DNA of 64,000 bases from Octopus vulgaris (Eukaryota): contig OX597818.1 of the NCBI GenBank assembly GCA_951406725.2, forward strand, positions 16,678,001 to 16,742,000, written 5' to 3'. Of the stretch, positions 4,133 to 64,000 are shown piece after piece. The notes beneath the pieces were generated by a model. It saw only the letters and a program-made list of their open reading frames with translations, was not told the DNA's origin and did no database searches. The position numbers were made by a program, and so were the translations under genes. How positions within the stretch are numbered: the first letter of the stretch is position 1; every line of letters starts with the position of its first letter.

Positions 4133-4530
4133 TCTTTACTTGTTTCAGTCATTTGACTATGGCCATGCTGGGACATCACCATGAAAAATTTTTAGTTAAA
4201 TGAATTGACTCCAGTACTTATTTTGCTTTAAGCCTGGCACTTATTCATGGTCTCTTTTACCGAACTGGTAAATTATGCAGGCATAAACACACCAATGCTG
4301 GTTGCCAAATGATGATTGGGGATAAATAAACACACACACAACTGGTTTTTTTTAGTTTCTTATTTCTTTATTGCCCAGAAGGAGCTAAACATAGAGGAGA
4401 TAAACAAGGACAGAAAAAAGGATTAAGTTGATTACATTGACCCCAGTGCGTAACTGGTACTATACCTGAGGCTATAGAAGACACTTGCCCAAGGTGCTAC
4501 ACAGTGGGACTGAACCTGGAACATGTCAGT
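4133..4530 (-). mobile_element. tRNA-derived SINE family A, decayed, with an embedded Meta-like SINE tail (~4355-4460)
   Basis: Reverse complement of the family A tail (ttttacttgtttcagtcatttgact...) and of the head (agaagacacttgcccaagg...gggactgaacc). Confidence 0.7.
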
Positions 4531-19338: not shown

Positions 19339-20357
19339 GTTTAGATAAAACAGAAACGTGAAAATGATTTTACTTCATTTATACGATCTGTCGCTGTCTC
19401 TTGCATGGGCAGGCAGGCTGTCTCCTGAAAAGTCACACAAACTGCTTCCTGTACAGTCATACAAACTGCTTCCTGCACGTCTCCTGCATGTTGTGCAACT
19501 GTATATTTATCTGCACTAAATTAGTCTTCGGAATACTATTTTATAACATAAAAGAGAATATATCTGTTCATCCATGTTAGATTGTTCCATGTACATATTC
19601 AAATAGCGTCCAGCTTAGGCTGAAGCTGTGTGTGTAGTATTTCTATTTGACTGCAGTAAGTTTCCAGAACACTCTTTTAAGATATTAGTCACCCCACATA
19701 AAAAAAAACAAAACAAAAACCTACCCATTTGATCCATATTAGATTGGGTGGTCCTGATGATTTTACTGCAACTGAACAACTCAGATGTGAAGCAGAAGTG
19801 GAGCTTGTTTTCAGATGAGCAGATTGAAACGTGTCGAGTTTAATTAGAACAGATGTCCACATCTAGATGATTGATTGTTGAGCTTTGATGTAAATCATCA
19901 TGCTGGATATTTTGTATATTTAAACGTTCAATGGCTGCAACAAAAGAGTTGACCAGGGAAGCTCAAAGATAACAATAAAGCAATTTAGTGCCATTGTCTT
20001 ACAATAAATGTTTCCCAAGTCCCAAGAGGATATTAAGAATTATTATTTCCTTCCTGCTGATGTGAGATGTGCTGAAAACCATTGCAGTTACACATGTCTG
20101 GGATATCTAACCCCTTTGCTTACTAGTTCAATGAATAGTTTGTTCAGTTGATTAACCAACTGGATGCTCATACATTGAAATCAGCTGTGGGGTTCATCAT
20201 ATGTACCACACTTTGTTAATTAATTATTTTGAACCTTTGTTAATTGATTATTTTGAAATAATTAGTTTCCAAAATCTCAAAGTTGTTGAGGAACAGGAGA
20301 AAATATACTCAATACAAAGTGTAGAATGCAACTATATTTATTCAACTATTTATTAAA

Positions 20358-20585
20358 GGCGGCGAGCTGGCAGAGTCGTCAGCACGCCGGGCGAAATGCG
20401 TAGCCGTATTTCGTCTGCCGTTACGTTCTGTGTTCAAATTCCGCCGAGGTCGACTTCGCCTTTCATCCTTTCGGGGTCGATAAATTAAGTACCAGTTACG
20501 CACTGGGGTCGATATAATCGACTTAATCCGTTTGTCTGTCCTTGTTTGTCCCCTCTGTGTTTAGCCCCTTGTGGGTAGTAAAGAT
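20358..20585 (+). mobile_element. tRNA-derived SINE with Meta-domain-like core (young, CpG-rich)
   Basis: A box tggcagagtcgt, B box gttcaaattcc, central gcctttcatcctttcggggtcgataaattaagtaccag; flanking direct repeat tatatttattcaact at 20333-20347 and 20589-20603. Confidence 0.85.
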
Positions 20586-21745
20586 ATATATATTTATTCA
20601 ACTGTTTAAACATGGTTGCCCTTGCATACAAGCTTGTCCCTTGCAACGCTCTACAGCTGCTGAGAATCCCTGATCTTGTGGGCTCGTAAGTGCTGGTACC
20701 ATGTAAAAAGCACCTGTACCAGTGCTGCGTAAAAGCACCCAGTACACTCTGTAAAGTGGTTGGTGCTAGGAAGAGCATCTAGCCATAGAAACCATGCCAA
20801 AACAGACATGGAGCCTGATGATGATGATTATGTGCGTGCGTGCATGAGGATCACTATCATACAAGTGATGTTCATTTTCAGTCTTCTGTGAAAAACATGT
20901 CTAGCCAAGGGGAAATGTTACCTTGCTTGTAAACAGATGTGGCTTAGCAACAGGAAGGGCATCTGGGTATAGAAAATCTACCCCCACAAATTCTGCCTCA
21001 CCCATGCAGTCATAAAAATGTGAACACTTTAAAATGATGATTCACACTACAACATGGAGTATCGGAATTACTCTATCAGCTCTGACAGAAATCAATGATT
21101 ATAAATCAGTAATTACTGCCTGAGCCAATCCAAAAATCATGAAACTCAGAGTTGCAGCTTAAGGATCAGTGAAAACACACACACACACACTTCACTTCTC
21201 CAACAGCTAGTATTATTAACCTGTTATAATGTTAGAGCCAACAGTGCTGAGAAGCAGACATCTTATCCATTTGACCTTTCTGACTTTTCAGCTGCCAAAA
21301 CTAATTACAAAGATCCTAATCAAATTGTTCCCATTTTATTGTTTTCAACCTAAACCTCTTTGTTCACACACATGCATGCTCTCTCTTTTCCCAATTCTCT
21401 CTCCCCCTCTCTCTTGGTTGCAGGCTAGCAACAGTTTCTCTCAAATCCACTCCTCCCTCATTTCTAGCACCTGTGTGTCCTTCCCCCCTCCTACAGTTAC
21501 AGCTGCTCTTGTAGCAGGTGAGAAAGGCTGAGAATTAACCTGTCAACTATGATAGTATTTCAAACAGCTTATCCCTGGTCTCTTGTGACACATCTCAGCA
21601 GCCTAATCCACTCTCCCCAAACAGGCAGGAGATACAATATAATCAGACTTCCATCAAAAATAAACTGGTGTTTGTTTCTTATTTGTTACAAATCCTATAC
21701 GTTCATTTTTGTGGTGCTTTATATATTGTTTTTAAGTGTCTTTAT

Positions 21746-23704: not shown

Positions 23705-24455
23705 CACAATGAAGGGTAAAGATCCAGAAACCATGGTCTACTGGTTTTCCAGGCTGGAGGGGAGTGATTCACCCCCTTACTCTCAATATATCGGACACAG
23801 GTTTTGTGTTGTTAACCAGCTGGAAAAAACGTTTTCCTGGGGTTAAAATGTAGTAACATACTTCTTTATAGGACAACCATGTTATAGTGGGACCTCCCCC
23901 CTAAAAAAAAAAAAACCCCAACAAAATGTTACCATCTAATATTGCCACTACTTATATCTCATTTAGAGATTTTAGAACTAGCCATTTTGCTCATTATAAA
24001 CAACAAAATGGTAGTAACATAGTTCTGTATTGAATAGCCATGTTGAAGTAGCAACCAACATTACTTTTCAGTATTATCACTACTTACATCTCTTATAGAG
24101 ATTTTAGAACTGGCTACTTTGCTTGTTGCCAAATCAGCAGCTGAATATCACTTGTATTTCTATATATTGCGAGCTAGGATGAATGACTGCCATGTCTAGC
24201 AAACAGGTGTCCAGTACTGATAAAGGGAAATACCCTGAAATCAGACTGCTATACTGGTTTATCACCACTAGATGGTAGGGGTTCGCTCCCCTGCTCACAA
24301 TATGTCGGACATAGGTTGTGTCTTTAACCAGTTGGAGATGTCCTCCTGGGGTTAAAAAAATAGTAGTAACATAGTTCTGTATGTAACAGCCATGTTGAAG
24401 TGGCAACTAGCATTACTTTTACTACTTATATCTCTTATAGAGATTTTAGAACTAT
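23705..24455 (+). repeat. Tandem hammerhead-bearing repeat (units ~23705-23985, partial 24008-24115, 24190-24455)
   Basis: Repeated blocks tagtaacata...gccatgttgaagt...tctcttatagagattttagaact; homologous to 62896-63175. Confidence 0.8.
24211..24257 (+). ncRNA. Type I hammerhead-ribozyme-like motif (G8->A variant)
   Basis: CCAGTA-CTGATAA-AGGG-aaata-CCCT-GAAA-tcagactgcTA-TACTGG. The sister unit at 23709-23744 keeps ATGA and GAAAC-CATG-GTC-TACTGG. Confidence 0.65.
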
Positions 24456-24539
24456 CTACTTTACTTATATATACACAATAGTAGATGCATAAATACACAT
24501 ATAGAGACTAATGTATAAACTTACACATATATACCATAA

Positions 24540-29181: not shown

Positions 29182-30188
29182 AGACAGAGTATATGTATGG
29201 ATTAATGGATGGATGGGCAGACTTTTTTTTTATATATTATTTCAATCTTTCCTGCAAAGAAGGGACTGGTATCTTAACAAAAAGACGAAGTTCTATTGTT
29301 GGAACTAGGATAACAAAAAAACAATAAATGTTACTCTTTTGCTTACAGATTGTATTGTAAAATGGTTGTTAGCTGGTTACTTTATCTGAAAACTCTTTCT
29401 GAAATTGTTATTGAAATATTGACAAAGTTCCCCACTAATTATTGCCATGAATGTGAATTTTTAATCATGGGTAGATAAGTTGCAGGTTTTGGAGCAGTTG
29501 TCCATATTCTCCTTCTCATTGATTTTGGAAGAACTATTCACTTCTGCTGTACCTCTATGACTTGTACATAACTTTTGTCTTTCAAGCTTGAAATATCTGA
29601 TGTTGGTCCTAGAAGTTTTGTAAGAACGTTTCTTTGATATGCTTCATATTGATAATGCATCTAAGTATTCATAAACAGCAGCATTGTCTCTATTTATCCC
29701 AGAACAGTTTTTTTTGTTGGGTGGCAGTGTCTTATCAACAACCTCATGCTGTGTTGAGAGATAATACCTTGATGACACTTTTGGGCAGCTGCTGATCACA
29801 TGTAATCTTTTATAGAAATGTGACATAATCCATATTTTCAGTTGCATTGCAGGGGTGTAAGGGCTTCACTCTTACTTTTGTTTGTTAGGTATTTTGTAGT
29901 TATCTCCTGCTCTTGTAATACAAAAGTATAGCTTTTGAAATGTGACTAGAGAAACTACACTTCGTGGTAATATTAGCATTCCCCTTAAATTTATGGAAAG
30001 CATAGCCATGCATTACCTTTTTGAGGTATGCAGTATTTATCATTTATGTCTTTGATGAGGCATGCTAGTCCAGTGTCTGGAACAAAATTAAGAAGAAATT
30101 TTGATGGAGGGTTTTAAATTCAATCACTTAAAAACAGGAAATTTGTATCTTAGGACTAATGGTGGTCTGAGGTATGTTGGTATCAAAA

Positions 30189-30419
30189 GGCGGCAAGCTG
30201 GCAGAAACGTTAGCATGCCAGGCGAAATGCTTAGCAGTATTTCGTCTGGCGCAACGTTGTGAGTTCAAATTCCGCCGAGGTTGTCTTTGCCTGTCATCCT
30301 TTCGGGGTCGATAAATTTAGTACCAGTTACGCACTGGGGTCGATGTAATCGACTTAATACCTATGTCTGTCCTTGTTTGTCCCCTCTATGTTTAGCCCCT
30401 TGTGGGTAATAAAGAAATA
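30189..30419 (+). mobile_element. Meta-like SINE inserted in the end of a TTAA/piggyBac-type MITE
   Basis: Same family as 20358; TSD ggtatcaaaagg at 30179-30190 and 30420-30431. The host resumes as ...aaaagggttaa. Confidence 0.85.
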
Positions 30420-30591
30420 GGTATCAAAAGGGTTAAGATTACATTTGTCTGGAATATTGATTCACTAACATTACAATTCAATTAATAGCCCATTTCATTG
30501 ATCAAACAGAACAGTTATTGTCAAAACTGGCAAAAAGCTATTCTCTTTTACTTGTTTCAGCCATGCAGCTGTGGTCATGCTTTTACGTTTA

Positions 30592-41432: not shown

Positions 41433-41740
41433 TATATGTTAATTAGTGTGTTAATGTGTTGAGTAAAGCACTAGCACAGTTTGGGCTACCTGGTGTCAGT
41501 TGGGATCGAAACGATCATTGTACAAAATAAAGGCTAATACCAAATCCATCTTCTGGGTACTTAATCAATTATATATACATTATATCAAATTATTATATAT
41601 ATATATATTAACCAGAAGATGGATTTGGTATTAGTCTTTATTTTGTACAATGATCGTTTTGACTCCAACTGTGGATGACACCAGGTAGCCCATCTGTGCC
41701 AGTGCTTTACTCTACACACTAACACATTAATCAATATATA
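41433..41740. repeat. Foldback: ~125-bp inverted arms around a TA-rich spacer
   Basis: 41433-41556 pairs with 41612-41740 (ttgtacaaaataaaggctaataccaaatccatcttctgg and its reverse complement). Confidence 0.85.
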
Positions 41741-43974: not shown

Positions 43975-44043
43975 AAAAAAACTTTTCCACCACCACCACT
44001 ATTTCTGTGGCTTTTGCTTAGAAGATCTAGTTGTTCTCATACC

Positions 44044-44275
44044 TATTTCTTTACTACCCACAAGGGGCCAAACACAGAGAGGACGAACAAGGACAGACAA
44101 ATGGATTAAGTCGATTATATCGACCCCAGTGCGTAACTGGTACTTATTTAATTGACCCTGAAAGGATGAAAGGCAAAGTTAACCTCGGCGGAATTTGAAC
44201 TCAGAACATAGCGGCTGACAAAATACTGCTAAGCATTTCGCCCGGCATGCTAACGTTTCTGCCAGTTCGACGCCC
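44044..44275 (-). mobile_element. Meta-like SINE
   Basis: Reverse copy of the 20358 family; 14-bp TSD gttgttctcatacc at 44030-44043 and 44278-44291. Confidence 0.85.
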
Positions 44276-45774
44276 TTGTTGTTCTCATACCATCTCCATG
44301 CAAACACTCACTTGTGTCTCTCTTGTCATTCATACTGTGTTCTGTCATTCCTTCCAGAAAAAAAAAAAATCAATTTATGTTTTCTATGAAATCTTATCAA
44401 TTACTGCTAGTGTGTATTTCAAAACATTCCTATAGTTGAAAATTAAACAATGCGGTGGGTGCCTTACTAAAATTCAACTACTTCCTATCACATGAATGTT
44501 ACTTCCTGTCAATTGTCTGAATGTGAGGAAAGTGTCAGTAATATCATATATTAGTAATTTAATACTGTCTGAGACTAATAAGTTGTAAAAAAAGAACGAA
44601 AAAAAGAGTGGGTTGCTTTACAGTTCTTCTTGTATTGTCTCCCCCTAAAAGCCCCAGGGATTCTGTTAAGAGAAAGGTTGCTTACAGCTGTGTTTTATGC
44701 TGTTAAGTGGATGTGAACCTGTATCTCCTAGACATAACATTTATCCTCCAGTTGGGAAGGCTGAGTGAGGCTTGTGGAATTTAGGTGTTCTACTTTATAG
44801 ACAGACATACCAGAAACATCTGCCTTGAGTTTGAACTCATGACCTATGTGCTGGCAGTCCAGTAATTTATATTCTCTCATCCATTTTCTTCCCTGCTTCT
44901 CTTTTTGCAGCATGATTTCAGCACAAATTCTTGCATTTCAAATGCTGCACAAGTTCTGTAGATTCTTGCTATTTGTGAGTGTTGGACTCTCTTTTAAAAG
45001 ATAAGAATGCATCAACTGACTGACAAGTTGTGTTTATCGCAAATTTTACTCCTAGAAAAACAAATTTACTGTTGATTTAAGTTGTGCTGTTGTCCTCTTC
45101 TTCCTTATTCTCTACCACTATCACCACCATCAACTTCACCACTACCATCACTTTATATGATTTATGCCATTTTTTAACAAATATTTTTTAACAGTCACTT
45201 TGAAGTTTTAAACTTGTAACTTTCCATAGAATTGGTTTAGCTCTGACTGACAAAAGAGTAAACAAAACAAACAAAAATGAAAAATAAATAACATTAAAAA
45301 CTAAAAATAAGTAAATAAAATAATTTTCATCTGAGAAATGTTAAGTATACAACCACCACTACCATCATCACCAACATACTACAACTATGACATCAACCAC
45401 TACCACAACAATGACTACTGCTACCGCTTTTACCATCCTCTCCCAAAAAGCACCAAGGCTACTTACAATAACTACAAGCCATATCCACAAGTTGGAACTA
45501 ATCCAAGTTGCATTTGATAAATTAATGTCACTTAGGTGGAATGAAAACCATTTGAGGATTTAATTTTTATATATTCGTATTTTTAAGATACTTCATTCAG
45601 TATATTGTTGTTGTTGTTGTTGCTATTAATATTTTTTATTAATTGTTGTTGTTAGTGTATTTTAAAAATTTTATTGCTTTTTCTTGATATTTGCTTGTTG
45701 ATTTGTACTTAAGAGAATCTTGATCTTTCATTTTTTTAAACATTTTTTCTAAAGTCAGCCATCATATTTAGTTA

Positions 45775-54959: not shown

Positions 54960-54968
54960 TTCTATATC

Positions 54969-55196
54969 TGTTTCTTTATTGCCCACAAGGGGCCAAACAT
55001 AGAGGGGACAAACAAGGACAGACAAGCAGATTAAGTCGATTACATCGACCCCAGTACGTAACTGGTACTTAATTTATCGACCCTGAAAGGATGAAAGGCA
55101 AAGTTGACCTCAGCGGAATTTGAACTCAGAATGTAGCAACAGACGAAATACGGCTATGCATTTCGCCTGGTGTGCTAACGCTTCTGCCAGCTCGCC
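54969..55196 (-). mobile_element. Meta-like SINE
   Basis: Reverse copy of the 20358 family. Confidence 0.85.
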
Positions 55197-57805: not shown

Positions 57806-58867
57806 CGCACACATAAATACTGTGTATGTGTGTATTTGTGTGTGTGTGTATGTTTACACACACACAAAATATAAGATAACTGCTACTGGGTCTTAATGGC
57901 ATTAATTGATTGTGTCACACTAATGTCTTCACCAATATCACTTCCTAGAGATATTAGTTTGAACAAAAGGTGTCATTTTATTGCAGAGTGTCTTCTTGAC
58001 AATAGCAAACTTGGTTCTCTGTGTGTATGTGTGTCTTTATGCTTTGGGTGCATATTAAATCTAATGTTGTCTTCCAAGTAACTAATGCATGTGCATTGTA
58101 ATGTTGACAGTTAGAGTTGGTGGTGTTATTGCAATACAAAAACAATAAGGTAAAAAGAGGGGGTGGGGAAAGGATGGATTTTGTTAATTTCTGAAATTTA
58201 ATCCTCAATTGTGAGGCAAAAGATAGCTATGACCCCCACCACCACTAAACACACACACACTTATGTTTGTTGAATTTAAAGTTATGTACTTGGTTGTGGA
58301 ATTCTGCTCTTAAATGGAATAAACTATTAGTGATTAGGTGTTTTTATAACATTTTGAAGATTTTTGTGATATGATCATAGTGGAATGAAGGAGAATATGT
58401 TGGAATGAAATAGTTTTCTAATAGGAAGGACATTTAGTTTTGGATAAAATATTAATAATTTTAGACTAGAATGTAATATTTCGAATGCAGTATGGCCATG
58501 AAAACAACAGACAGATTGGGTATTTTACCCTTATAATAATAGTAATTGTGGGAGGGTTAGGGGCTAGTTGAATACATTGACCCCAGTGCTTATCTGGTAC
58601 CTATTTTATCAACCCTAAAAAGATGAAAGGCAAAGCTGGCCTTAGTGGAATTTGAACTCAACATAAAAATGGAAGAAATGCTGCTTAGCACTTTGTCTGG
58701 CATGCTAATAGTTCTGCCAGCTTGCTACCTTGAAAATGATAATTTCAAATTTTGGCACAAGGCCAGCAATTTCGGGGAAGGGATTAAGTTGATTACATCA
58801 GCCCCACTGTTCAACCGGTACTTATTTTATTGATCTCAAAAGGATGAAAGGTGAAGTTGACCTCTAC

Positions 58868-58902
<35 letters not shown>

Positions 58903-59125: not shown

Positions 59126-60739
59126 GCCAATACATTCACTACTTGTCTCATTTCCTCAAACACCTTTCATCCCTCCCTCTTTCTTCTTTCTCCATGTTTT
59201 CTTCCTCCTTTTTAGTCTGCCTCTTTCTCTTCTCCACCTCTCTCCAACCCTGCTCCTCATTCTCAATATATTTACTGTTAAATCAATACTACACCTTATC
59301 ATCTGCCCATATAGTCAATTACTGTCCTCATTTTACATGTTCTGTTTGTCTGCTTGTCTGCTCCCACCCCCATTCCCTTCATGCCTTGATGCGATCATTT
59401 AACCAGGGCCTGCCATATTTATTCATAATACCTTTACTGCTTCAAACAGAAATACTTTGTTGCTGTCTCATCTTTTTCTATTTTACCCCCTCCTCCGTCA
59501 CTCATTCTTCCATCGAGCAATGACCTCCCCTTTCAACATTCTATACATGCTTATTGATCTTTCATTGATCCTGATGGCATCAGTATAAGAGGCCATCTAC
59601 CCACCTTACGTGTCAGTTCATTCTCAAGCCGGCTGTTGATTCCCCCTTCTCCTCTACTCCACGACTGCTGTGAAACACTACTAAGGCTTTGGTCATAACT
59701 GCATATTATTATTTTGTTGTTGTTAATATTTAGTAGTGCAGTGGATGGGCTAATTGCTTTGTAGTATTTTCTTATGATCCTTTATGGTCAGAGCTCAATT
59801 CTTGCTGGGGCATGAGGGTTCAACTCTGTATTTCAACCTTCTGGGCTTTATAGAATAAAATACCAATCAAGTACTTGAGCTCAGTTTAGGTGATGTATTT
59901 CCCTAGAGTGTGTGTGTGTGTTTGTGTCTCCTCGTCTTGACATCACGTGAAAGTTGTAGATGAGTGTCCCTCTCATACCAGTGGTGTCGTTAATTTCCAG
60001 TCTTTTGTGCAAATATGTCTACCCACGAGGGAAATAATATTTTGCTTGGAAACAAGTGAAGGTTGGAGTCAAGAAGGGCATCTTCCTACAGCCTGCCTAT
60101 GCATGACACTGTACCAGTGTCAAAAGTCTGTACAAGAAGACAAGGCCAGAGTTGAATGCTTCATGGTAATTTTGTTTAGCACTTCCAATTTTATCAGTAG
60201 CACCATTAATTTATTGATTTACTTTGTGTTGATATAAATTAGATGGGTTTGCAAGACTTTGAACTTTCACATAACCTTCTTCTTGAGATTTTGGGACATG
60301 ATACCGTTTCAATAAAATTTGAATGGACTATTTAAAATAGCTATAAACAGCGGAGTTTCAGATCAGGATGCCCACATAAGTTGGATTTTCTCCATTTTGA
60401 TCGGGATTTTTCCAATTTGTTTTTCACCAGAGCTTTGGAAATGATTGTGCTATGCTTTTTTATGAAAAATTTTTTGAGAAAATTTATTTTTTCACACCAT
60501 TCCACTTCCCCAGACTAATTTTGGCCAGTTGTTCTTGCACTACTCTTAAAAACGATGGGAAGAAGTTTTTGCTAAAAAAAAGAAATTTTTGAAAATATTT
60601 TCAGCCAAAGAGGTGTGTGATTTAAGGGAGATTTAGCTGTTGTTTTTTTACATATTCTATGACCCCTGGTACCTTTCTCAGAACTGCATGTAGGTTTCCA
60701 GAATGTTTTTATAAAAATAACATGATATACAATTGGTTG

Positions 60740-61068
60740 ACTTTAGTTTAATAAAAAAAAAGAAAAAAGAAAAGGGAAAATAAGTAAATCCTGTTTGAAC
60801 ATTTTGTTTAAAAGGTGTAATTATAGGGCGAAAGCAAAAAGGGAAGTCGTGGTTTTGCCTTGGAGCAAGGCTAGAGGTTGTGTAATAAGTTAATGGTAAA
60901 GGAATACATGGTTTCATCTCGCAGTGAGAGCAAGATGGCCGGCTCATTTGCATTGTAAATATATTCATTTCACATTCATCCTTCATATGTTTCAGCATGT
61001 CTTTATGTTCCTGCATGTCTTTATATGTCCCCTCTGTAATTAGGCCTTGTGCTTGTAATAAAGAATTA
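60740..61068 (+). mobile_element. 3' UTR of a 5'-truncated L1/Tx1-like element (upstream member of a tandem)
   Basis: Diverged direct repeat of ~62547-62895, ending tgtcccctctg...aggccttgtgcttgtAATAAAgaat. Confidence 0.7.
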
Positions 61069-62908
61069 AGCTAGCAAGCCACACCCACTTGTTGTTTTGA
61101 AGAACTCTAGCCAAATTTTTGAGCAAAGCCACCATTGTTGGGTGGTAGTGAATAATTGAGAAAAACGAAAGTTATGCAGAAGCTACTGGAAGTTGAGTTC
61201 CCCTAGACCCAAGTGTGCTGAAACAAGAGATGGTAGCATGCAAAAGTGAGCTGATAGAAAAATATAGTAGTATGGTGGAGAAAGAAGGGTCAAATATAAA
61301 ACTGACCCTAACAGCGGACGAAAAAGCAAAAATAGAAAAGGAGACAGTAATATTCAGAACATTTTCAAATAAAAACAAAAGAATTGAAAAAGCACCACAG
61401 GAAGAAATAGAAGAAATTTTGGAAAGACAGATAGGAGACAGCATAGCATTCTTTATGAGAGGAAAGAGTTATGCGTTTATAGTGGTAACCTTTGTATCAG
61501 AAGAGGAGGTGGCAAAATCCTCCAACAGGATGATACAGGGAGAGAAATGGACATTGATGCCAAACTGTTTGGAAAAACAAATTGTGAGAATTAAGGTGGG
61601 AAGAATCCCACCATCGATAGATCTAAAGTAGATAATAGCAGTGATTTTTTTTTATTCGGGGATAAGGAAGGAAAGTGAAGAGGTGAAGATGGGCATGATA
61701 AGCTGAACCCAACAAGTGAAGTGGTGAGGTTACAGATTAGAGATGATTTGTGCAGTGAGCCAGAAATATTACAATGAAATACCTGTAACTTTGGAGCTAC
61801 CAAATGAAGAAAAGCTGGAGATAATGTTTGAGGGGAGACCCCCAAAGTGTTACAAATGTGGTGAAAGAGGGCACTTGAGAAAGAAATGCCCTAGAGCAGC
61901 AGGGGAAATTGTAGAGGAGAGTATTCAGGAGAATATAATGGTGGAGAAACAGCAGAAACAGATAACAGAACAAGAAAGGAATTTTGTAGAGGTGAAAGCA
62001 AGAAAAAGAGAGAGGCGGAAGTCACCAACGATAGTAGAACTGGAGTGCAAAGCGATGGAAGAGGTAATCCAACATATGACGAGAAATGGGGAAGATTCAC
62101 CAGTAGGATCACCAGGAAAGAACTTACAAGTACAAAAACATTCAGACCCACAGACACTCAAACACACAGACATCCAACCGCACAGAAATATAGAGAAACA
62201 GATACAAGATGTCTTAGAACCACAGAAACCTAAAAGCATAGACACACAGATGAAACATGCAGAATTACAGTTAAACAAACACACAGACACAATCACAGGA
62301 CAGCCAAGAATTACAGAAATACAGAGAAAAAAAACACAAACATGCAAGTGACAAACAGAAGGTTTATAGTGAAAAATAGGACACGCAAAAGTTAAAAGAA
62401 TTTCAAAATTGAAAGACATCATGAAAGAGTGAATCCACTGGGGCAGGAGGTGGATGTTGAACCTCGTGCCTCAGTGGTGAATTATGGAAAAGGAGAATTG
62501 GTAAGTTGTTATTTCTCTTTAAAGACTATAAAAACTGAGAAAAACCTTTAGTTAAACTTTTTATTGGAGACAAAAAAAAAAAAGGAAAAGCAAGTAAATT
62601 TTGTAACTATTGAATGAACAAGTGTTTAAAATTTTTTTTTAAATGTAAGGTGGAAAGGAAAAGGGAAGTCTCAGTTTTGCCTCTGAGCAGGGCTGGAAAT
62701 TGTTATTTAAAATGTAGGTTTAAAAAGGAGGGAAAAAAAGGATTACGGTTTCATCTCAGAGCGGGACCGAGATGACTGTCTCATTTTCATTGTAATTTAA
62801 TTCATTTTACATTCATTCTTTCAGGTATTTTTTGTTCCCACATGTCTGTGTATATCCCCTCTGTGTTTAGGCCTTGTGCCTGTAATAAAGAATGCAGCTA
62901 GCAAGCCA
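61069..62908 (+). mobile_element. ORF1-only (HAL1-like) L1/Tx1-related non-autonomous retroelement, ~1.8 kb
   Basis: 13-bp flanking direct repeat agctagcaagcca (61069-81 and 62896-908). Short 5' UTR, gag-like ORF, no EN/RT ORF, 3' UTR ending in AATAAA. Confidence 0.7.
61152..62351 (+). pseudogene. Gag-like ORF1 (N-terminal SYAEA motif, RRM-like region, CCHC zinc knuckle)
   Basis: ORFs 61215-61631 and 61743-62351 share one frame, joined across stops at 61194, 61629, 61704 and 61725; knuckle CYKCGERGHLRKKC. Confidence 0.8.
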
Positions 62909-63175
62909 AGCTACACCAGACTGATAAAGAGCAATGACTCTGAAACTAGCCTCTGGTTGCTGGTTTTGCTGGGTGGAGGTGCTTATCTACCCTGCTTGAA
63001 AACATAAGGATACATTATGCTTGTGTCACATGGCCAACTGGAAACGGTATTTACTGGGGCTAAATAGCAGTAGCATTCTTCCCTTTCCTGGAATTGCCAC
63101 ATTAAGTTGGCAACAAACCATCAATTTATCATGCTGCTTCTGCATAAGTCTCTCTTAGAGATTTAGAACTGCAAT
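62896..63175 (+). repeat. Hammerhead-bearing repeat unit (same family as 23705-24455)
   Basis: Shared blocks ctagcaa..ccag(t)actgataaag, ccaactggaaa..ctggggctaaatagcagtagcat, gccacattaagttggcaac and ctcttagagatttagaact. Confidence 0.7.
62916..62956 (+). ncRNA. Type I hammerhead-ribozyme-like motif (degenerate)
   Basis: CCAGA-CTGATAA-AGAG-caatga-CTCT-GAAA-CTAG-CC-TCTGG; G8->A and U16.1->C relative to the canonical core. Confidence 0.6.
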
Positions 63176-64000
63176 ATTTCTAATTTTACATATATATATA
63201 TATATATTAGGATAATGTAATATGTATGTATTTGGTAACAGCAAAATCTAAAAATCTAATATATATTTCTGAGATGGCTGTTGATAGATTACAATTACAC
63301 AGTAATGACTGTAATAGAAAATTGAAATTAAAATGTGCAATCTTTTATTTCCATTCAGAGAAAAAGAAAAGGAATTTGAAATGAATTTCTAAAATTGTAT
63401 GTGGTGGGTGTGCATGGTTGTGGTGGAGAACAAGGCTAGAATTGTACAAATATACAGGATGAAGGGAAATTGAGAAGGATGCTGAGTCCTAGGAATTTGT
63501 TGTTAAGTGACTTGGATGGATGTCACTCGATGAATGCAAGGCCATTAAAGCCTCTGAAGTGTAATATATTTTAAAGCGAACAGGAAACAAGGGAAGTATA
63601 TGGGAATGGGTGAGGTGAAATATTATACGCATATACACACGCACACACACAGTGAGAGAGAAAAAGAGAATAATTGTTGATTTTTAAATGGGACATGATG
63701 AGGGAAAGAGAGAGAGTGGTGGTGGTGGTGGTGTTGGGGGTGGAAATAGTCAGATTAATAATTACATTGAGAATAAAAATAAAATACTTAGAATAAGTGG
63801 TTGAGTTAGAGATTTTTAAAGGGTTACAACTGTGATAGAAAAGATGTATGAGAATGTTGAAAGTGTAGCTATTCATGCCCTTATTGAAATATATTTGTGT
63901 GTGTGGGTACGGTTTGTTTAGACCCAGGTCAACAACTATAATGGAGAAAACTGGTGATCAAAGGCTATCTTGTCTTTTTATATATCAGGCATTGTATCAT

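Follow-up and report, generated by a model that had tools for sequence, protein, structure and literature searches.

Tandem ORF1-only LINE units at a likely polymerase II start site within a hammerhead retrozyme repeat of Octopus vulgaris

In a 64,000-nucleotide stretch of the Octopus vulgaris genome (contig OX597818.1; hereafter the window), we found two tandem ORF1-only LINE units at what is likely the polymerase II (Pol II) start site of a retrozyme-type hammerhead monomer, a site to which the APE-RT of their lineage is likely anchored; we give this reading a probability of about 0.7. The decayed unit at 61069-62895 has ORF1 only, belongs to an L1/Tx1-group LINE lineage and follows the tail of another unit; the window copy itself is a fossil. 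The features are listed in Table 1.

Table 1. Coordinates of the LINE units, duplications and hammerhead monomers in the window
Feature	Position	Strand	Remarks
Partial tandem of related monomer family D, uninserted	23709..24460	+	hammerhead core from ~24217
3' tail of 5'-truncated ORF1-only unit	60691..61068	+	hexamer 61057-61062, no poly(A) run
13-mer, first copy	61069..61081	+	target-site duplication between tandem units
Short T-rich 5' UTR of ORF1-only unit	61082..61165	+	3' limit approximate
Decayed ORF1 (gag-like) with in-frame stops	61166..62351	+	start approximate
3' UTR/tail of second unit	62352..62895	+	no ORF2; hexamer 62884-62889
13-mer, second copy	62896..62908	+	target-site duplication; 5' strand of extended helix I
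Retrozyme-type monomer A	62896..63186	+	full period 339 nt; adjoins (TA)n run
Type I hammerhead, family A	62915..62977	+	G8 and U16.1 altered in window copy
Hammerhead helix I	62915-62920 with 62952-62957	+	part of family A hammerhead
Hammerhead core	62921-62927	+
Hammerhead helix II	62928-62941	+
Hammerhead helix III, palindromic	62946-62949	+

The initial annotation had described two related tails, each followed by the same 13-mer, and both pairs are present. An alignment of the two tails over 313 bases gives 79% identity, rising to 82% in the final 163, and the second tail ends six bases after its poly(A) hexamer without a poly(A) run. No hammerhead monomer was found upstream of the first tail, which aligns with tandem units of two other loci, L040 (from 60691) and L020 (from 60774). 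Its tail, 13-mer and head junction recurs in loci L020, L036, L040, L059 and L085, which supports the tandem pile-up considered in the initial annotation, and the same head comes after a monomer and 13-mer in loci L003 and L191-L195. The decayed ORF1 retains open pieces at 61197-61631 and 61728-62351 and a CCHC zinc knuckle at ~61845-61892 (zf-CCHC E 1e-5). ORF1 with a LINE-type 3' tail and no ORF2 is also the composition described for HAL1 (half-L1) elements, ORF1-only non-autonomous L1 derivatives (PMC5753468); the octopus unit differs in being target-anchored, tandem and embedded in a retrozyme.

The repeat downstream of the units contains a hammerhead of family A. Genome-wide, the core pattern of this family matched 311 times and its control 0 times, and a hammerhead descriptor fitted 59 copies of six families and 0 of 2950 shuffles, so the arrangement is not due to chance. 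Across the six families, differing helix I sequences pair at 4-6 of 6 positions, helix III is a palindrome of 1-2 bp, and F2 hammerheads exchange C3-G8 for U3-A8, a covariation. The predicted cut falls 51-63 nt past the start of the duplication in all families, and after 62951 in the window, where the core spans 62921-62951. The 13-mer pairs with ~62965-62977 in the minimum free energy (MFE) fold, which agrees with its annotated role in extended helix I. The MFE fold of the window copy is no more stable than shuffles (z -0.41), and those of single monomers gave z values of 0.54 to -1.20 in five of seven cases and of -2.1 and -4.3 in two young families; the call of a true type I hammerhead thus rests on the descriptor and on cross-family pairing. 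Rfam scans of the window and of 20 loci matched only U1, U2 and microsatellite look-alikes, with no hit to a hammerhead family. The window hammerhead is probably inactive, since it departs from its family at the conserved core positions G8 (62926) and U16.1 (62950).

At the sequence level, the monomers resemble metazoan non-LTR retrozymes, which are described as tandem monomers of 170-400 nt with a type I hammerhead (PMC7229834): they are tandem, with periods of 339 nt in family A (locus L082) and 351 nt in family B (locus L058). The window monomer matches the tandem monomer of locus L082 at 82% over positions 1-284 and stops short of its own promoter motif.

The 13-mer is the target-site duplication at a fixed site in this ~340-nt monomer, as emerged when filled and empty repeats were compared. 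Tail searches yielded 158 candidates in the genome, and in the best 40 (84-90% identity, window copy included), classed by eye, the tail was followed by a hammerhead monomer in 26 (14 family A, 6 B and 6 C), by the head of another unit in 13 and by other sequence in 1; random flanks, which would have spoken against a targeted element, were thus not seen in 39 of the 40. Among 30 family A cores, 23 followed the monomer's own upstream sequence and were empty, 4 followed a tail and 3 other sequence, these counts, like those for tails, being drawn from best-scoring or first-listed copies and not from random samples. In empty monomers, the 13-mer sits directly behind the monomer's own upstream sequence, and a U1/U2-like motif precedes it by 56-59 bp. 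Exact 5' junctions of monomer, 13-mer and head occurred five times in the genome and never in the control, with further cases in L003/L004 and L045. Empty sites, filled sites and 5' junctions alike thus uphold the proposal that the element inserts repeatedly, directly 5' of the hammerhead, into a retrozyme-type repeat. The unit at 24192-24460, which had been taken for the same repeat without the retroelement, is indeed uninserted but belongs to a different family (72% identity over 250 aligned bases); it is not an empty allele of the window monomer, and genuine empty alleles occur at other genomic loci.

Intact full-length relatives, which the initial annotation had suggested seeking, do exist. 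L129 and L138, for example, encode an ORF2 with APE, RT and a C-terminal zinc finger (zf-RVT), and a CCHC knuckle occurs in ORF1 of the window unit and of the autonomous relatives. Their closest solved structure is human L1 ORF2p (E 3e-66, vs 4e-23 for R2). Two homologue searches and a cluster look-up returned no labelled Tx1 reference; the nearest named homologue was from Argonauta hians (63%), and an atlas look-up of the APE-RT gave generic APE-RT clusters only. We provisionally assign the lineage to the L1/Tx1 group, the affinity seen being to the L1 group. As a separate observation, contigs from three putative RNA runs and one probable DNA run aligned to L129 with no starts, ends or splice joints, and are neutral either way.

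These relatives are not confined to one target. Among 20 autonomous stretches, a hammerhead monomer flanked the element at both junctions in 11, and U2 +1 was the site in 3, 2 of these with both junctions; the U2 duplication spans ~U2 -2..+14. Behind this duplication, L122 and L124 keep a short hammerhead-monomer leader, as expected if the element RNA began at the monomer site. One copy (L217) adjoins U1 +1, for which a 5' junction was searched and not found. Intact relatives also occupy the corresponding position in other monomer families and sites ~30 bp behind TATA boxes, and target-specific relatives form tandem arrays with a 5.3-kb period. Insertion where the U1 and U2 genes begin and behind TATA boxes suggests that the family likely aims at Pol II starts and not at the ribozyme.

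The distance to promoter elements points the same way. The same six-base core lies 57-61 bp upstream of +1 in 28/28 U2 and 20/20 U1 loci. A matrix trained only on U1/U2 loci peaked at -56..-60 from the duplication in 13/38 untailed A anchors, and scored best at that spacing in 5/6 E1, 6/7 F2, 1/2 E2, 1/1 D and, with a weak score, 1/3 B anchors, while the null gave 11/3000 at score >=6; family C, with no empty site, was left out. The 25/38 untailed A anchors with no motif in the right place comprise 5'-truncated or inverted copies, four copies with an 8-base deletion (motif at -50) and several chance 13-mer matches. In the window, the family D tandem carries a U1/U2-like motif 59 bp upstream of the leader at 24192. 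With a PSE-like motif at U1/U2 spacing, the insertion site in monomers is likely set by the promoter and not by the ribozyme; transcription likely begins at the fixed site, driven by an snRNA-type promoter with 62896-62908 as its predicted +1..+13. Newt satellite 2, a hammerhead repeat with an snRNA-type promoter, offers a precedent (Coats et al. 1994 as cited in PMC2220036).

TATA boxes were counted from 20 pairs, of which 7 were dropped (6 with no or spurious 9-10 nt repeats and 1 tandem junction). A TATA-like hexamer lay 27-34 bp upstream in 7 of the 13 remaining target sites (duplication >=15 nt), or in 4-5/8 when distinct sites are counted, where the slot background is 0.031. Paralogous heads of a different LINE account for two of the TATA sites, and 6/13 duplication-defined F3-type sites had no TATA box at -30.

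On balance, we lean towards a LINE that is tethered to the Pol II initiation complex and inserts near +1 at snRNA-type and TATA promoters, capturing them; retrozymes would provide a landing pad that multiplies itself and would also re-copy the LINE within oversized ribozyme-cut monomers. The APE-RT would cut the monomer site because it is anchored to Pol II start sites, through TBP, SNAPc or open DNA at the start site as candidate tethers, and an autonomous copy would supply it in trans to ORF1-only units. Nicks at ~-3..+1 and +13..+17 would produce the 13-19 bp duplication and place the element in sense orientation. The captured promoter would then transcribe the element, and new copies landing at the same start site would build tandem arrays. 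Where monomers are tandem, RNA between two hammerheads would include the element, and the retrozyme pathway, probably with a Penelope-like RT, could copy element and monomer together as an oversized monomer, with 5' truncation and inversion.

Several observations bear on the partner and on this joint transport. The decayed ORF1 shares 23-33% identity with its counterpart in intact APE-RT copies (E 1e-5 to 1e-11), ORF1-only units branch separately from autonomous ORF1s, and the window tail weakly resembles those of autonomous families (z 5.3 for F1, 2.0-2.4 for F2/F3). One APE-RT copy (L218) adjoins an A-like monomer; our search found no intact APE-RT copy whose ORF1 and tail were those of the window unit. 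We set aside L045, which has an APE-RT piece behind an A-type ORF1, as a candidate autonomous A-type element, since that piece is broken, is missing both of its ends and may be a separate insertion. Among 17 tail-plus-hammerhead copies with a visible 5' boundary, monomer and duplication lay directly upstream in only 1, an inverted piece was present in 5, and 11 had neither. In the inverted pair L003/L004, the two copies match at 95% across element and monomer, vs 78-83% in comparisons with other copies. Truncated copies mostly without an upstream monomer or with inverted pieces suggest that element and monomer likely also move as one unit, and the window copy most likely arose by such composite re-copying, although later deletion in old copies could also account for the absent upstream monomers.

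We weighed four other explanations. Classic Tx1 sequence specificity, in which each subfamily's endonuclease reads a short target and promoter spacing is a by-product of the repeats that are tolerated, seems to us unlikely. Tx1 target choice has been credited mainly to the endonuclease (PMC4494074), and the F1 sites in U2 and in monomers E1 and E2 have ~7 bases in common at the cut, so sequence preference may contribute. Yet near-identical window-type tails come before three unrelated leaders, F2-type tails adjoin both a monomer and U1 +1, F3-type tails adjoin at least 8 different sequences, and what stays constant across these unrelated targets, with misses, is the distance to the promoter (PSE -56..-60, TATA -27..-34). 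Targeting of the ribozyme had been put forward in the initial annotation. Recognition of the base of helix I, through a cruciform or RNA-DNA pairing, with read-through RNA gaining a ribozyme-cut 3' end, appears very unlikely. It would fit the position of the duplication in extended helix I, the regular distance to the cut and the absence of a poly(A) run at element junctions, but the U1, U2 and TATA insertions share the junction form where there is no hammerhead, so that promoter distance is the common feature and ribozyme targeting is unsupported as a cause. Moreover, a helix III of 1-2 bp is reported to need a second hammerhead (PMC4209133), and genomic monomer copies retain ~220 nt past the cut site.

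The annotation's alternative, a new class of gag-plus-ribozyme elements with the hammerhead unit as a built-in 3' module, is improbable. Since most monomers carry no insertion, it is wrong in its original form; part of it survives as a second step, with element and monomer apparently re-copied together. In its favour, truncated ORF1-only copies mostly stop where a monomer usually has its 3' end and have no monomer upstream, inverted duplications take in the monomer, and a Chlamys element with a gag-like ORF and a 3' hammerhead has been described (PMC8557442). The empty sites largely refute this reading, however, and full-length copies lying between two monomer halves with a duplication, as well as the lineage's presence at sites with no hammerhead, also stand against it. 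A gag-only element with the two repeats as genuine LTRs is scarcely credible: a gag-like ORF does lie between direct repeats, and the repeat has a terminal CA, but their identity falls far from that of near-identical LTRs, heads directly behind monomer and 13-mer with no upstream tail refute it, and relatives encode APE-RT and not protease or integrase.

Promoter-anchored insertion by a LINE, the reading we prefer, has partial parallels in known systems. Target-specific Tx1-clade LINEs (Tx1L in Tx1D, Tx1-Mar in Mariner-N4_AMi, Keno in U2; PMC4494074, PMC4640811) share an APE-RT ORF2, a zinc-knuckle ORF1, a fixed site in a repeat or snRNA gene, a ~15-bp duplication and tandem copies that sandwich it. 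In contrast, the octopus lineage uses many unrelated sequences linked by promoter spacing, and hits U2 at +1, whereas Keno and Utopia share a site before U2 nt 39 (PMC4640811). The sections consulted on Tx1 targets do not name hammerhead repeats among them, and a figure legend gives unspecified 'satellites'. Ty3 inserts 1-4 bp upstream of tRNA starts via TFIIIB, ORF1p of Dictyostelium TRE5-A binds TFIIIB including TBP, and NLTR-A (L1 clade) inserts 2-6 bp upstream (PMC5911963). All three keep a fixed distance to promoter elements whatever the local sequence, and TRE5-A and NLTR-A are L1-group APE-RT elements; they act at Pol III genes, while the octopus anchors are Pol II promoters (PSE, TATA) with a putative tether. 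The sense orientation of the octopus insertions implies that the promoter is captured.

Penelope-like elements and Terminons are described with hammerheads in terminal repeats and partial tandems (PMC8557442, PMC6431247, PMC4209133), and inverted 5'-truncated copies and a (TA)n neighbourhood are further likenesses. The octopus monomers differ in having no attached Penelope RT or GIY-YIG in the loci examined and in carrying L1-group ORF1 as cargo; we considered a Terminon reading and rejected it. No RT-GIY-YIG ORF flanked by the repeat occurred in 30 family A loci, and 10 examined of 148 GIY-YIG loci had no monomer-core match and held other hammerhead variants; matches of GIY-YIG loci to the end of probe C are probably to the flank of the probe. 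The literature searched held no report of LINEs inserting in or riding with retrozymes and no description of this arrangement; Repbase, Kojima and Fujiwara 2004 and supplements lie outside it and could hold such a Tx1 family. The lineage thus appears to be a variant of target-specific LINEs in an apparently new arrangement.

At Pol III genes, integration anchored to a promoter with base precision is already known (Ty3, TRE5-A, NLTR-A). Tx1-type specificity is usually ascribed to an endonuclease that reads sequence. Young, intact copies that switch among U1, U2, hammerhead repeats and TATA boxes make the question of sequence or tether testable in an animal LINE. On the side of retrozymes, the data point to an snRNA-type motif in several families as an answer to what promoter they use, and bear on whether they can carry cargo. 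If the explanation is true, insertions of this lineage would mark transcription start sites.

The two tails (3' ends of the ORF1-only LINE unit), the two 13-mers and the hammerhead-like motif described in the initial annotation were all found in the window. The tails are 79% identical to each other, and the stretch between the 13-mers contains a decayed ORF encoding a CCHC knuckle and lacks ORF2. Region 24190-24455, which had been taken for the same hammerhead repeat, proved to be a related monomer of a separate family (72% identity).

Coordinates of features in the window and of related loci (L numbers, genomic stretches of the same genome; C numbers, contigs)
Feature	Location	Observation
Partial tandem containing the 24192-24460 monomer unit	23709-24460	
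Sequence directly 5' of the truncated first unit	60330-60690	matches neither monomer nor element
13-mers	61069-61081, 62896-62908	
Long inverted repeat, hairpin-like	41507-41661	~155 nt; probably a MITE
SINE-like repeats	4351-4522, 20355-20593, 30186-30429, 44034-44277, 54964-55196, 58566-58881	
Arrays of 5-9 intact head-to-tail APE-RT elements	G000:C9:59207233-59249922, G000:C5:29182013-29203578, G000:C2:73044843-73067161	5.3-kb period
U1/U2 gene clusters	G000:C18:48.97-49.21 Mb, G000:C23:43.30-43.32 Mb	at least one LINE at +1 in each
Heads (unit 5' ends) with splice-donor-like motif	among L121-L140; L002, L018, L019, L027, L036, L037	
Hammerhead with U3-A8 in place of C3-G8	L128-L134, e.g. 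L129:6844-6940	young family

Several abundant SINE-like families make up the bulk of the window's dispersed repeats, and miRNA-model matches to the inverted repeat were weak and under cut-offs.

The unit downstream of the tail does have a hammerhead fold: a descriptor fitted type I hammerheads in 59 copies from six families and passed 0/2950 shuffles, in agreement with the canonical metazoan form as described in PMC4209133. Helix I sequences are wholly different among the six families with pairing retained, and helix III is a short palindrome. The family F2 core carries a compensated U3-A8 pair, and families E1 and E2 have U3-G8. Monomers recur with a period of 339 nt (family A) or 351 nt (family B), with tandem and inverted 5' pieces, and resemble the non-LTR retrozymes described in PMC7229834. 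Because G8 and U16.1 are altered, the window's own hammerhead is probably inactive. An Rfam scan of the window and 20 loci reported no hammerhead family, and single-sequence monomer folds were mostly unexceptional. The family-A core pattern matched the genome 311 times (control, 0); among the first 30 cores listed, the 13-mer was preceded by the monomer's own sequence in 23, by a tail in 4 and by something else in 3.

We then classed by eye what follows the tail in the best 40 of 158 candidate genome copies. A hammerhead monomer came directly after it in 26 (14 of family A, including the window copy, 6 of B and 6 of C), another ORF1 unit's head in 13 and other sequence in 1, bearing out the proposal that the tail docks repeatedly at a hammerhead repeat. 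In 10-kb views of 20 of the 40 loci, the ORF1-only units often stood two or three in tandem with a monomer at the end, and inverted pieces were common. Monomer|13-mer|head junctions had 5 exact genome matches (control, 0) and also occurred in L003/L004 and L045, while a strict pattern gave six exact tail|13-mer|hammerhead junctions. Heads also occur without a tail upstream, which excludes the reading of the window's repeats as LTRs. The 13-mer is a target-site duplication, and the element inserted repeatedly at a fixed monomer site, as had been proposed (probability about 0.9).

Direct insertion into a standing monomer would be expected to leave monomer and duplication 5' even of truncated copies. 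The 5' boundary was visible in 17 tail-plus-hammerhead copies, the window copy included; monomer and duplication lay upstream in 1, an inverted monomer or unit in 5 and neither in 11. L027 carries an additional truncated unit directly 3' of monomer and duplication. In the inverted pair L003/L004, identity reaches 95% with the monomer included, compared with 78-83% to other copies. The missing upstream monomers could reflect later deletion in old copies; as judged from these boundaries, it is fairly likely that element and monomer were transported together by the retrozyme pathway. Penelope-like elements form partial tandems with inverted 5' copies according to PMC8557442, and PMC7229834 presents them as proposed mobilisers of retrozymes. 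Intact Penelope-like ORFs occur in the O. vulgaris genome, and the 10 of 148 GIY-YIG loci examined showed no link to these hammerhead monomers. L273 and ~20 of the GIY-YIG loci represent a Penelope-like family that is young and intact; its open frame of 781 residues encodes RT and GIY-YIG, and an atypical, minimal hammerhead variant lies downstream. The putative ribozyme-defined 3' end is not needed by the proposed mechanism.

Starting from the broken APE-RT piece of L045, we found 150 RT relatives. Many have an open frame 1130-1150 residues long and lie in arrays with a 5.3-kb period. They carry APE, RT and zf-RVT domains, their nearest solved structure is L1 ORF2p, and the nearest named homologue of one related RT is from Argonauta hians. 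The ORF1 of these autonomous relatives is homologous to the window ORF1 (23-33% identity); the ORF1-only units form a separate branch, a likeness to HAL1 as described in PMC5753468. Target-specific Tx1 elements as described in PMC4494074 are the probable nearest kin; the octopus RT shows L1-group affinity, and none of the homologues retrieved was a labelled Tx1 reference.

Among 20 APE-RT stretches, 11 had both junctions within a hammerhead monomer, the duplication measuring ~15-17 nt, 3 were U2 +1 insertions, 2 were parts of F2 arrays (one terminating in a monomer) and 4 belonged to F3 arrays, F2 and F3 here being groups of autonomous elements. In 40 further 3' junction regions, the adjoining sequence was a monomer in 12, a partial monomer in 1, U1 +1 in 1 and the head of another copy in 3; it was one of three multicopy sites in 13 and a single site in 9, and the remaining region showed no junction. 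The U2 site differs from that of Keno, which inserts before nucleotide 39 (as given in PMC4640811). Every junction in the three intact arrays carries a locus-specific duplication; such arrays could arise from repeated insertion or unequal crossing over. The splice-donor-like motif lies 45-70 nt 3' of the duplication in many element heads and suggests a 5' UTR intron; the window-type head is without it. Contigs from presumed RNA runs, compared with L129, showed neither a spliced joint nor transcript starts or ends and were uninformative on transcription.

Omitting a filled U2 locus and a pseudogene, 28/28 U2 and 20/20 U1 loci share a six-base core 57-61 bp 5' of +1, at the expected position of the proximal sequence element (~60 bp upstream, as described in PMC4494074). 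A promoter matrix trained solely on the U1/U2 loci had its top score at -56..-60 relative to the duplication in 13/38 untailed A anchors, 5/6 E1, 6/7 F2, 1/2 E2 and 1/3 B (where the score was weak), as well as in family D of the window, against a null of 11/3000. Most misses were copies that had been truncated, inverted or hit by a deletion, or were chance matches to the 13-mer. The monomer families are partly related, so the motif's presence in several is not fully independent. Newt satellite 2, as cited in PMC2220036, is a precedent for an snRNA-type promoter inside a hammerhead repeat. U2-inserted elements in L122 and L124 retain a short monomer leader after the U2 duplication, consistent with RNA starting at the monomer's site.

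F3-type copies had a TATA-like hexamer at -27..-34 in 7/13 target sites with a duplication of at least 15 nt; after collapsing to distinct sites, with L135 and L137 added by eye, the count was 4-5/8 versus a slot background of 0.031. Two of the TATA-bearing F3 sites are paralogues, both being the 5' end of a different LINE. The probable common denominator of monomer, U1/U2 and F3 target sites is a promoter, and the spacing makes it likely that the elements are anchored at Pol II start sites and capture the promoter. The closest working analogues of promoter anchoring among those in PMC5911963 are Ty3, TRE5-A and NLTR-A, whose targets are Pol III genes. In the open-access main texts searched, we found no LINE described as using hammerhead repeats for insertion, nor one anchored to Pol II start sites. 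In L262 and L263 the F3 target is the TATA-driven 5' end of a different LINE family, which encodes APE-RT and apparently has a 5' intron, and site X (L264) resembles a head belonging to a further ORF1-type element; at these sites, elements would parasitise the promoters of other elements.
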